From: a virus
Lineage: Duplodnaviria; Heunggongvirae; Uroviricota; Caudoviricetes
Direction: 5' to 3' (one strand)
Length of the DNA: 17,389 nt
Virus record (IMG/VR): IMGVR_UViG_2671181122_000014
Coordinates: 1-17,389 of that record
Shown here: positions 3,001 through 6,000 of the stretch, in pieces
Layout: each line of letters opens with the position of its first letter
Position numbering within the stretch: position 1 is the stretch's first letter
Position numbers: made by a program

Positions 3001-6000
3001 GGACTCCGGTTTTGTGAAGCTGTCGGCTATTTCATTCCGCCAATATTTTCCCACGTCCCGTCAGCACGCAGGATTTGCAGCGGTCTTACCACGCACTGTA
3101 TCTGCTTTTTATCCGCATCCAGTATCACCACCTGCGTGATTACCCTGGCCTGCTCCGGAATAATACCATTCTCATCTGACTCCAGGATGTCTGCCGGTCC
3201 CAGTCGCAGTTGTGCTGTAAGCGACTGCACGTGTTCACGGCCATCATGCTTTCCGCAACCACACAGACGCTGCATAAGTTTTTTTAGTATATTCATGTCA
3301 TTCTCCTGTTCTGCCTGTATCACTGCCCACTTCATCCAGCCCCTTAACATCCTGCCACGGCCCGTCACCAAACCTGACCTGCAAATGCTGAAACACCCCC
3401 TGAACCTGTGTGGCATCTTTGGGGTCAAGAAAGGTCAGTCCGGTGATGAGCGCACCATCTGTACCCGGGAACCAGCCATTGCTGTTTGTCTCAATAATGC
3501 TCGCCGGCCCCAGACGAAAACGGATTTGTGTCTCCCCCGGGTCGCCCTTCGGTCCCTGAGGTCCGGTTGCCCCCACCGGGCCAGCCGCACCTGTTTCTCC
3601 TTTCGGTCCCTGTGGGCCTGCCGCACCGGTATCTCCCTTTGGACCCTGTGGACCTGCATTTCCCGTCAGACCGGTCTCTCCCCGCTCTCCCCTGTCGCCT
3701 TTCGGCCCCTGCGGGCCTGCCGGACCAGTATCTCCTCTCGGCCCCCGTTCGCCGGTTGCCCCGACAGGGCCGGTGTCACCACGCTCTCCCTTATCCCCCT
3801 TCGGCCCCTGAGGGCCGGCGGGCCCCTGTTCCCCCTTTGGCCCGGGAGGTCCCACCACGGTGGGGATTCGGTTTACGGCTTCTTCCGCCGCTATCCTGCT
3901 TTGTTCCGCTGACTGTGCGCTTTCTGCTGACTCCCGGGCTTTTTCTGTTGCGGTCGTTGCATCCCTGGCTGCATTACCGGCTGCACTTTCTGCCGTCTTT
4001 TTTGACAATTCAGCATCTGCTGCACTTTGTGATGACTCAATGGCTTTTTGAGCGGCCGCAGAAGCCGAGGACGAGGACGCATCCTCTGACTGCTTTGCTG
4101 AGGCTGCACTTTCTGCCGCCTGCCGGGCTGACTCCGATGCCTCCCCTGCTGAAGTGTCAGCATTTGCAGCGCTCTCTTCTGCCTGACTGGCTGATATGCC
4201 GGCATTCCTCGCGGACGTCTCCGCCTCTCCGGCATTCTTCTTCGCCTCCTCAGCGTGACGCGCCGCTTCTTCCACCATCAGTTCAAAACGACGCAGTGCC
4301 TCCGGCCGGACGTCATCCTCCGACATGGCACCGAGAAAATCATTCAGCGTACCGGGTTGAGAATCTTCATACACGGTGATGGTCCCGGCATGTGACGGCG
4401 GGAATCCTTCCACCAACAGAATGACGCTGTACTGACCGTACTCAACGTCCATGCTGTAACGACCGGCTTCATCCGGATTTTCAGAGGCCACCGTGTTCAC
4501 CACCACCGTGCTGCTGGTCCGTCTGGCTTTCAGTTGAATGGTGCAGTTCTCTACCGGTTTTCCTGTGCCGTCTTTCAGTACACCTGAAATCTTTACTGCC
4601 ATATTCACCCCACAAAAAAGCCCGCCTGAACCGGCGGGCTGTCATAACACTGTGTTACCTGGCTAATCAGAATTTATAGCCAACACCCACGATGAAGCCG
4701 TCAGTGCGCCAGTCGCCACTGCCGGAACCTTCATAAGCGACATCAACGGCCACGGATTCGGCCGGGTTAAACTGCACGCCAGCTCCCCACGCCAGAGAGG
4801 TGTTACTGTGGCGAGCGTCATCACTTCCGGTCAGCACGTCGTGCGTTTTCCCCTTGTTGTCAGTTACGCGAAGATAATCCCCGGAGAAAGTCGACACACG
4901 GCTGTAAGCCACACCCGCCATCGCATACGCGCTGAGCCATTCATTCACGCGCACAGACGGCCCCGCCATTACGCTGAACCAGCGGTTACGCACTGAATCT
5001 TCATGCCAGCGGGTATCGCTGTAACGGATAATCTGGCGATTCTTGTCTCCTGCATAGCTGAATGACGTCACCAGCCCCAGCGTGTCCGTAAACTCATAAC
5101 GGTATTTCACGTTAATGCCCTTCAGGTCATCGCTGCCTGGCATATCAGTATGGGTCTGAAGATACCCGGCGCTTAGTGTGGACTGATGCTCTGCTGCGCT
5201 CGCTGGCGTACCAGCGGCAACCAGCCAGACTACTGCGGACAGAATAACAGCACATAATTTACGCATAATTACCTCTCGCTTTTCTGCAATAAAAAAGGCG
5301 CCATTTCTGGCGCCCGTATATGGGTTATAAAATTCAGCTGATACTGATGCCTGCGGTGGCTTTCTTCATCACCACAACCAGCAAATCGCTGATACTTGCT
5401 GTGGGATACCAGTTATTCACCAGCCATGCTGACACCGAAAACTCCAGCGTCATGTGACCGTGACCGGCAGGCATATCAATAACGCCACTGTAAATCAGCG
5501 TATTATCCAGCGCGGTACGGTTATAAATTTCAGCACCGTTTTTCCGCACTATCAGACGGCATGAGGAGTAAATATCAGTATGCTCTCTCTCATGTTTAGC
5601 GCCACTGAATGCCACCGCCGGAATAACAATCTGCCGGTCAAACGGCTGATCGTCATAAACCCTGACAGTAATGGTCCCTGATGGCCACCGCTCCGGTGCA
5701 CGGGAGTCCCGGGGGAAAGCTTTGCCCACTGTTTTAACGAGATCGCCTTCAATCTGGTTGGCGGACAGTTTTCCCAGAACCCGACAGTTCTCGTTAATCG
5801 TGACGTTGTTGAGCGTCCCGGCGTTCGCATTCACACTGCCACTGATATCCGCATTTTTAGCGGTCAGCTTTCCGTCTGATGTCAGGGAAAATGCCGGAGG
5901 ATTGCCGCCACTGGTAATTGTGGGAGCAATAAGGGTCTTAATCAGCGCTTCATTGAGAAACGTCTGTCCCCCCTGCGTGACCAGTGCTGGAGTGGTGTTA

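Follow-up and report, generated by a model that had tools for sequence, protein, structure and literature searches.

The window analysed here, a stretch of 17,389 nucleotides (nt) comprising positions 1 to 17,389 of the IMG/VR virus record IMGVR_UViG_2671181122_000014 (Caudoviricetes), carries a gene for a collagen-like fibre protein of 434 amino acids (aa). We are highly confident that this is the side tail fibre, of the known EPclA collagen-like type, of a lambda-like long-tailed prophage of attaching/effacing Escherichia. Coordinates are positions in the window, and all listed features lie on its minus strand. The fibre gene and its parts are as follows.

3298..4602, minus strand: gene assigned to the EPclA-type side tail fibre, 434 aa plus stop (open reading frame (ORF); Pfam PF08400, PF01391 and PF06820)
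4204..4602, minus strand: PfN, N-terminal tail-attachment (collar) domain, aa 1-133 (PF08400)
3853..4203, minus strand: PCoil, Ala/Ser/Glu-rich heptad coiled-coil rod, aa 134-250, 117 aa (composition and periodicity)
3529..3852, minus strand: collagen domain of 36 uninterrupted Gly-X-Y triplets, aa 251-358, about 31 nm (regular-expression count, PF01391)
3615..3623, minus strand: indel hot spot, with a single copy of the 9-nt unit CGGCAGGCC (DNA alignment with loci L082, L113 and others)
3301..3528, minus strand: C-terminal 76 residues with PfC, the distal knob (PF06820)

The ORF is intact in translation from the ATG at 4602, which is preceded by GGGGTGAAT, to the stop codon at 3298-3300. The plus strand of 3298..4602 is stop-ridden and contains no intact ORF over that length. 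Two shorter plus-strand ORFs, 3136..3912 and 3528..4379, were taken as shadows of the GC-rich repeat; nothing supported them, and no separate search was made for them. Rfam gave no matches within the window. The protein matches PHROG 366 and PHROG 3279, 'tail fiber protein'. PF08400 (phage_tail_N) matches aa 1-133 with E=6.2e-69, exceeding the curated cut-off of Pfam, and PF06820 (Phage_fiber_C) matches aa 360-423 with E=1.4e-36 and covers all 64 profile positions.

The sequence between these two ends was examined by composition and periodicity. The rod had been described in an earlier note as an Ala/Ser/Glu-rich low-complexity shaft. Its composition agrees, since Ala, Ser and Glu account for 31%, 16% and 16% of aa 101-246 (63% together), but it is not featureless: the periodicity of Ala/Ser occupancy over the same residues shows one sharp peak, at 3.5 residues, as heptads do. 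Because this is the single peak, the rod is read as a heptad coiled coil. The collagen run is uninterrupted, as the earlier note had it, although the count is 36 triplets and not 35, and 76 residues follow it instead of 77; the distal domain is nevertheless as small as had been claimed, with 64 of its 76 residues in PF06820. The probability of Gly at 36 successive third positions by chance is about 1e-41 at a Gly frequency of 7.4%. Pro occupies the X position in 17 of the 36 triplets, and the Y positions hold mostly T, K, Q, R and A. There are no Pf2 repeats in the run, and Pfam finds no PF03406 (Pf2 repeats) in the whole fibre.

All five of the sequence and context features that define EPclA are present: PfN, a heptad PCoil of about 116 aa, a single uninterrupted collagen domain, PfC, and a location in a lambdoid tail region. 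In the original description EPclA has the layout PfN-PCoil-Col-PfC and usually 437 aa, with a PCoil of 116 aa and a collagen domain of 111 aa (Ghosh et al. 2012, PLoS One 7:e37872, PMC3368898). Compared with ECs2717 or ECs2941 of O157:H7 Sakai and with H0004 of VT1-Sakai, the window fibre has the same domain order, the same 250-aa part before the collagen and the same 76-aa tail at about 97% nt identity. Its gene likewise follows J and lom and precedes the same 89-aa gene. The common EPclA allele has 37 triplets and 437 aa, whereas the window has 36 triplets, one 9-nt unit fewer, together with scattered substitutions. At the protein level the fibre is about 96-98% identical to its close 437-aa homologues, apart from the one missing triplet. 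Over 1.7 kb the fibre region is 97% nt-identical to the tail fibre regions of the Shiga toxin (Stx) phages 2851, VT1-Sakai and 1717, and many Stx1a, Stx2a and Stx2c phages match it at the same level. In VT1-Sakai the counterpart is annotated as 'tail fiber protein, similar to 933W L0121 and lambda Orf-401'. Against complete E. coli genomes the window as a whole shows only 90-95% identity, and the fibre region up to 98.2%. The exact 434-aa sequence is absent from a collection of 15 billion proteins, and no significance of this absence is evident. The architecture, the trimer and the length variation of these fibres were already published in 2012; the window adds one more, minor allele.

The properties of the protein can be expected by analogy with the 437-aa Sakai EPclA, which has the same layout. 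The recombinant protein is a trimer with a triple-helix signal in circular dichroism (CD), a melting temperature of 42 C for the collagen and of about 52 C for the coiled coil (PMC3368898). Its PfC is a trimerisation module that enables fast refolding of the triple helix, and as a whole the molecule has the shape of a dumbbell with a hinge, 55-62 nm long, of which collagen makes up about 30 nm and the coiled coil about 16 nm (PMC3368898). The window fibre would thus form a trimer with a collagen triple helix as well; the collagen-type triple-helix repeat proposed earlier is borne out by its motif and by the CD of this homologue.

The N-terminal attachment region was correctly recognised at the outset as lambda-Stf-like. 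The first 160 aa are 75% identical to lambda orf-401, the N-terminal part of Stf, and aa 1-93 match the 'Tail fiber protein' of PDB entries 9E7M and 9MGH (chain 9E7M_Ta, the collar of Ur-lambda Stf) with E=1.9e-51. In that structure residues 1-94 of Stf form a six-stranded beta sheet and a helix, and 12 copies make a collar at the gpV/gpM junction; these correspond to four trimeric fibres, joined via flexible linkers (PMC12617516). Homologues of both V and M are encoded in the window, and Stf-like docking of the fibre on the tail tube at the gpV/gpM junction would therefore be the natural expectation. Like the window fibre, lambda Stf (orf-401 and orf-314 in lambda PaPa, intact in Ur-lambda) begins with a collar and an Ala/Ser-rich coiled coil, and its gene follows lom. 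It then continues with Pf2 repeats and a T4 gp37-like OmpC-binding tip, and is accompanied by Tfa, whereas the window fibre has a collagen helix and the 76-aa PfC knob instead. A tblastn search of the window with lambda orf-314 gave nothing significant (best E=0.49, in the V gene region). By sequence, then, the window fibre shares the attachment end of Stf and is outside the lambda Stf family in its distal receptor-binding part.

Two other groups deserve comparison. EPclB (933W L0121, Sp5 ORF67/ECs1228, phi24B gp61) likewise has PfN, PCoil, PfC and a collagen shaft and precedes an 89-aa PfC-only gene (L0122/ORF68), but it has 645 aa with two collagen domains split by a Pf2 repeat and belongs to a podovirus tail, whereas the window has one collagen domain and a siphovirus-type tail module. 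The Sp5 ORF67 protein, of EPclB type, is essential and was placed at the tail by immuno-electron microscopy (PMC5155283). The more distant Scl1/Scl2 of Streptococcus, BclA of Bacillus and gp12 of SPP1 resemble the window fibre in having an unhydroxylated (Gly-X-Y)n repeat, Pro-rich at X and with charged residues, next to a globular trimerisation domain that nucleates the triple helix. Their flanking domains are unrelated to those of the window fibre, in which the nucleating domain is C-terminal; moreover, the window protein is a virion fibre and not a protein of the cell surface or the spore.

The surroundings of the fibre gene are those of a lambda-type tail operon followed by cargo. Pfam matches place a complete tail module, Z, U, V, G, H, M, L, K, I, J, then lom and the fibre gene, all on one strand, and the order J-lom-fibre matches J-lom-stf of lambda. 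The neighbouring features are as follows.

5334..8813, minus strand: J, central tail fibre (Pfam), with the remaining lambda-type tail genes (I, K, L, M, H, G, V, U, Z) upstream
5296..5315, minus strand: terminator-like hairpin after J (consensus scan)
4667..5266, minus strand: lom (Ail/Lom outer-membrane protein), the upstream neighbour (PF06316, E=2e-121)
4619..4640, minus strand: terminator-like hairpin between lom and the fibre gene (consensus scan; AGCCCGCCGGTTCAGGCGGGCT plus T6)
3027..3296, minus strand: 89-aa PfC-only protein (PF06820 at aa 72-133 of a longer ORF; PHROG 576)
2989..3013, minus strand: terminator-like hairpin after the 89-aa gene (consensus scan)
1987..2577, minus strand: type III effector of the WxxxE family, 196 aa (PF03278; annotated likewise in a related genome)
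1628..1792, minus strand: tfa relic, C-terminal 55 aa only (tblastn with lambda Tfa residues 136-190, 69% identity, E=1e-18)
552..1427, minus strand: type III effector Ibe, 291 aa (phrog_6583, E=5e-196)
1..234, minus strand: short ORF at the window edge

The two effector genes downstream of the tail are cargo typical of prophages in attaching/effacing E. coli. No intact Tfa gene lies directly downstream of the fibre gene, where the 89-aa gene is found, and the 55-aa relic is all that remains of it; a tfa pseudogene is annotated at the corresponding place in L164. As the relic is stranded between the two effector genes, the cargo seems to have been inserted into, or to have replaced, an ancestral stf-tfa region. 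L164 has a fragment of an IS630-family transposase at the place of the short ORF 1..234, which is probably an insertion-sequence remnant marking the end of the prophage.

A model of the fibre can be proposed from the domain architecture, the homology and the indel anatomy, which were observed directly, and by analogy with the close homologues on which others have demonstrated the trimer, the triple helix, the coiled coil, the trimerisation by PfC and the dumbbell. Three chains would make up one fibre. As the homology to Ur-lambda Stf suggests, residues 1 to about 94 would form the beta-sheet collar that clamps the tail tube at gpV/gpM, in 12 copies and hence four fibres per virion. The chains would continue, from about residue 100 to 250, as a trimeric heptad coiled coil of about 16-20 nm and, beyond a flexible hinge, as a collagen triple helix of 36 Gly-X-Y triplets, about 31 nm long. 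At the end, the 76 C-terminal residues would form a trimeric PfC knob of about 7 nm that nucleates the triple helix and sets its register from the C-terminal end. This knob is the most likely contact with the cell surface, and such contact might speed reversible adsorption before J engages its receptor. Each triplet gained or lost by in-frame indels, which occur between short direct repeats of the collagen DNA, alters the length of the fibre by 0.86 nm, and the window has lost one 9-nt tandem unit relative to the common 37-triplet allele. The docking of the collar in this phage, the role in adsorption and the use of any receptor are inferences.

Several points weigh against the proposed reading of the fibre. 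We know of no receptor for PfC. Strong hairpins bracket lom and the pair formed by the fibre and 89-aa genes, and one of them, at 4619..4640, lies directly upstream of the ribosome-binding site of the fibre gene and ends about 10 bases before the start codon; as judged from these hairpins, expression of the fibre presumably depends on late-gene antitermination. In AlphaFold2 the mean pLDDT (predicted local distance difference test) was 53 for the PfC tail (76 aa, 12-row alignment) and 51 for the 89-aa protein (15-row alignment including the distant repeats of a protein, P0355, described below). Because of these scores the models are unusable for fold comparison; they are mostly beta strand, in agreement with the absence of helix in the published CD of PfC (PMC3368898). 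A 2026 preprint on phi24B (10.64898/2026.04.10.717836) reports that structure prediction also fails for the equivalent domain of gp61, that the EPclB-type fibres of this phage point towards the capsid, and that the related lateral fibres of lambda_2B8 do not recognise BamA. The same preprint doubts that BamA is bound by the PfC-type domain of gp61, and counts what these lateral fibres do among the questions still open.

In the strongest alternative, PfC is a folding and registration module only, the fibre recognises no specific receptor and serves as a non-specific spacer or sticky arm, an aid in crossing the O-antigen layer or a capsid contact, and host recognition is left to J alone. We consider it unlikely. 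PfC has been shown solely to trimerise and to renucleate the triple helix (PMC3368898). The fibres directed towards the capsid in phi24B, with a flexible collagen shaft that was judged unable to transmit a signal, and the lack of BamA binding in lambda_2B8 are in keeping with it (10.64898/2026.04.10.717836), as is the fact that the side fibres of lambda are dispensable for plaque formation (PMC12617516). On the other hand, the EPclB homologue is essential in Sp5. The ratio of nonsynonymous to synonymous substitution (dN/dS) shows purifying selection on the PfC of the fibre (0.25) as well as on PfN, and the 76-aa tail stays constant while the shaft varies from 4 to 38 triplets. In general, the distal C-terminal domains of trimeric phage fibres are the binding end. 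The purifying selection therefore makes 'receptor-binding tip' a reasonable reading of PfC, not an established fact.

PfC is a narrow family, because an exhaustive search with a hidden Markov model profile of PfC among 1.84 billion cluster representatives gave 91 matches only. Long proteins with multiple PfC hits were set aside: they are mostly SprB or CarboxypepD_reg repeat proteins, and their beta-strand matches are probably spurious. A word-indexed protein search with the PfC domain added no diversity, as nearly all matches were near-identical E. coli fragments. One distant relative, P0355 (565 aa), has four tandem PfC-like modules of about 90 aa each, then collagen and a further C-terminal region, so the module also exists as an internal repeat and not solely as a C-terminal knob. 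In a scan of one genome per species the full architecture was found in Escherichia only, the other matches being confined to the collagen or to a lambda-like N-terminus. In contigs of about 23-48 kb that are assigned to unrelated taxa (loci L003-L008, from Leeuwenhoekiella, Pseudomonas, Neobacillus and a Chromatiales metagenome-assembled genome), a lambda-like Stf N-terminus is 75% identical to the query. Two of these contigs measure about 48.4 kb, the size of the lambda genome, which suggests that the loci are contamination with lambda DNA.

The gene for the 89-aa PfC-only protein begins with an ATG one base past the TGA of the fibre gene (TGAcATG). In the protein, 27 N-terminal residues, which include a CGCGKH motif, precede a PfC of 62 residues that is 39% identical to the PfC of the fibre. 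An IMG/VR survey of the best 80 loci found an intact PfC-ending fibre in 47, and in 43 of these the two genes occur as a pair with the same 1-nt spacing. The short-tailed phages 933W (L0122) and Sp5 (ORF68) have the pair too. ORF68 of Sp5 is non-essential, and the authors speculate that it is a reservoir for varying the fibre (PMC5155283). Three results on this gene are new here. First, dN/dS in its PfC part is 0.07, and such strong purifying selection shows that the gene is kept as a protein. Second, apart from a 16-nt chance match the DNA of its PfC has no similarity to that of the fibre PfC, which makes homologous exchange of the two modules unlikely. Recombination between them was accordingly rejected; the one chimera seen, P0176, is a singleton. 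Its first part is the N-terminal half of the 89-aa protein and its second the C-terminal half of a fibre-type PfC; it may be a recombinant. Third, the origin of fused fibre/89-aa ORFs could be traced. Ahead of its ATG the 89-aa gene has another 44 codons of open frame (3297..3428), which overlap the end of the fibre gene, and a programmed frameshift was considered as the source of fusions of 494-527 aa. It was rejected: the fusions result from different 1-nt deletions, a +1 shift would be needed, and no shared slippery site was found among them. In the fusion loci L141, P0015 and P0019 one deletion is apparently at or near a run of T. The fusions are probably mutations or sequencing errors, and Mondal et al. 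2016 (PMC5155283) are in agreement with this rejection.

As a tentative idea, which we hold to be rather improbable, the 89-aa protein may be a conserved working partner of the fibre and not just a silent reservoir, for example either a cap or adaptor on the PfC knob or an alternative tip, taking a place like that of Tfa or gp38. The strong purifying selection, the conserved spacing, the lack of DNA similarity between the two PfC modules and the presence of the exact 89-aa protein on 993 contigs fit such a role and are not proof of it. If true, it could explain why so small a knob suffices.

The length of the collagen shaft varies among homologous prophages, as the earlier note had anticipated. 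In 120 cluster representatives, drawn from a search of 5.8 billion proteins, the PfC-ending fibres have 4 to 37 triplets and the same 76-residue tail, save for a few frameshifted or fused ORFs, and the part before the collagen is mostly 250 residues, with a minority of 209, 187 or other lengths. A sister group with a 134-aa tail of PF13884 (annotated 'peptidase S74') reaches 38 triplets. The full range of 4-38 triplets corresponds to a shaft of approximately 3 to 33 nm, at about 0.86 nm per triplet; these estimates are arithmetic from the rise per residue of collagen. Of the 47 intact IMG/VR fibres, 39 have 37 triplets (437-441 aa), two have 38, four have 27, and single loci have 32 and 8. The collagen region is present in 715 of 5,426 complete E. 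coli genomes (about 13%), with 9 copies at the median and 14 at most. Triplet spans were read in a spread sample of 60 records, which gave 57 full-query matches, 53 with a 37-triplet span and 4 with a 36-triplet span. One of these 4, in the complete genome of E. coli O111:H8 08-4347, codes for 434 aa and has the junction seen in the window, with 59 nt of difference in the background. Thirty-six triplets are thus a real and recurrent state, and not an assembly error. Similarly, the collagen domain was reported to span 27 to 144 residues in single-collagen-domain EPclA/EPclD, with differences in multiples of three (Ghosh et al. 2012, PMC3368898).

The indels map to short direct repeats. The 37-triplet alleles read GGTG-CGGCAGGCC-CGGCAGGCC-CACAG, with two perfect tandem copies of the 9-mer where the window has one, and the 38-triplet allele of L113 has three copies, the third with one mismatch. 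A second copy of CGGCAGGCC lies 99 nt away in the window, at 3714..3722. Where more has been deleted, leaving 32, 27 or 8 triplets, the deletions are bounded by direct repeats of 10-13 nt, for example CCGGCAGGCCCG or CAGG(T/C)CCACAGGG, which recur at spacings of 54, 99, 108 and 198 nt. The periods that Tandem Repeats Finder detects (9, 36 and 99 nt) are all imperfect, at 76-90% matches. Slippage at short direct repeats, or unequal exchange between them, would account for this pattern, and the many paralogous copies per genome probably help the change in length; in O157:H7 EDL933 and Sakai there are seven to eight EPclA copies each (PMC3368898).

It was also suggested that the repeat is prone to slippage, and theoretically the collagen tract could be a hypermutable contingency locus, in which replication slippage acts as an adaptive length switch within a strain. 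In its favour, 36, 37 and 38 triplets all map to one 9-nt unit in one, two and three copies, the 36-triplet state occurs on the two backgrounds described above, and many lengths exist among homologues. However, such loci are long perfect arrays of short repeats, whereas here the 9-mer occurs in at most 2-3 copies, the hot spot of the window holds one, and the other repeats are imperfect. One length is dominant both in IMG/VR and in E. coli, and since all length changes are in frame nothing is switched on or off. As for the larger deletions, with their terminal repeats and up to 14 paralogues in a genome, recombination is equally possible. We regard a contingency locus as improbable: because the arrays are very short, one length prevails and the frame is kept, the variation looks like ordinary indels around a favoured 37 triplets and not like a hypermutable slippage tract.

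A decayed, truncated remnant of a lambda-type stf that yields no working fibre is very unlikely. The gene is indeed far shorter than that of lambda Stf and has no lambda-type distal part, and of tfa only the 55-aa relic is left, with effector genes in the intervening space. Yet the ORF is intact and under purifying selection, with a complete and conserved four-domain layout and a C-terminal domain family of its own. Hundreds of genomes, and inducible Stx phages too, have retained this layout, the recombinant homologue is a stable trimer, and the EPclB relative has already been detected on the tail. Hardly credible, finally, is the view that the protein is no part of the virion and works for the bacterium as a collagen-like surface adhesin in the manner of Scl: collagen-like proteins of other pathogens do bind host matrix or cells, and any role of these fibres for E. 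coli itself was left open (Ghosh et al., PMC3368898), but the window protein has no signal peptide or anchor, its N-terminus is a phage collar domain, its gene lies in the tail operon after J and lom, and the reported expression of the EPclA type is tied to phage induction (PMC3368898).

Questions about the fold of PfC, its receptor and the role of the 89-aa protein belong to the whole EPclA family, and the window makes none of them more tractable. A fibre gene that is present in many copies and bears repeats very likely breaks short-read assemblies; the search with the PfC domain returned mostly fragments annotated 'partial'. Shiga toxin and type III effector genes pass from one E. coli strain to another on phages that bear these fibres. 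Because such phages carry toxin and effector genes, what the fibres bind bears on the origin of new pathogenic strains.

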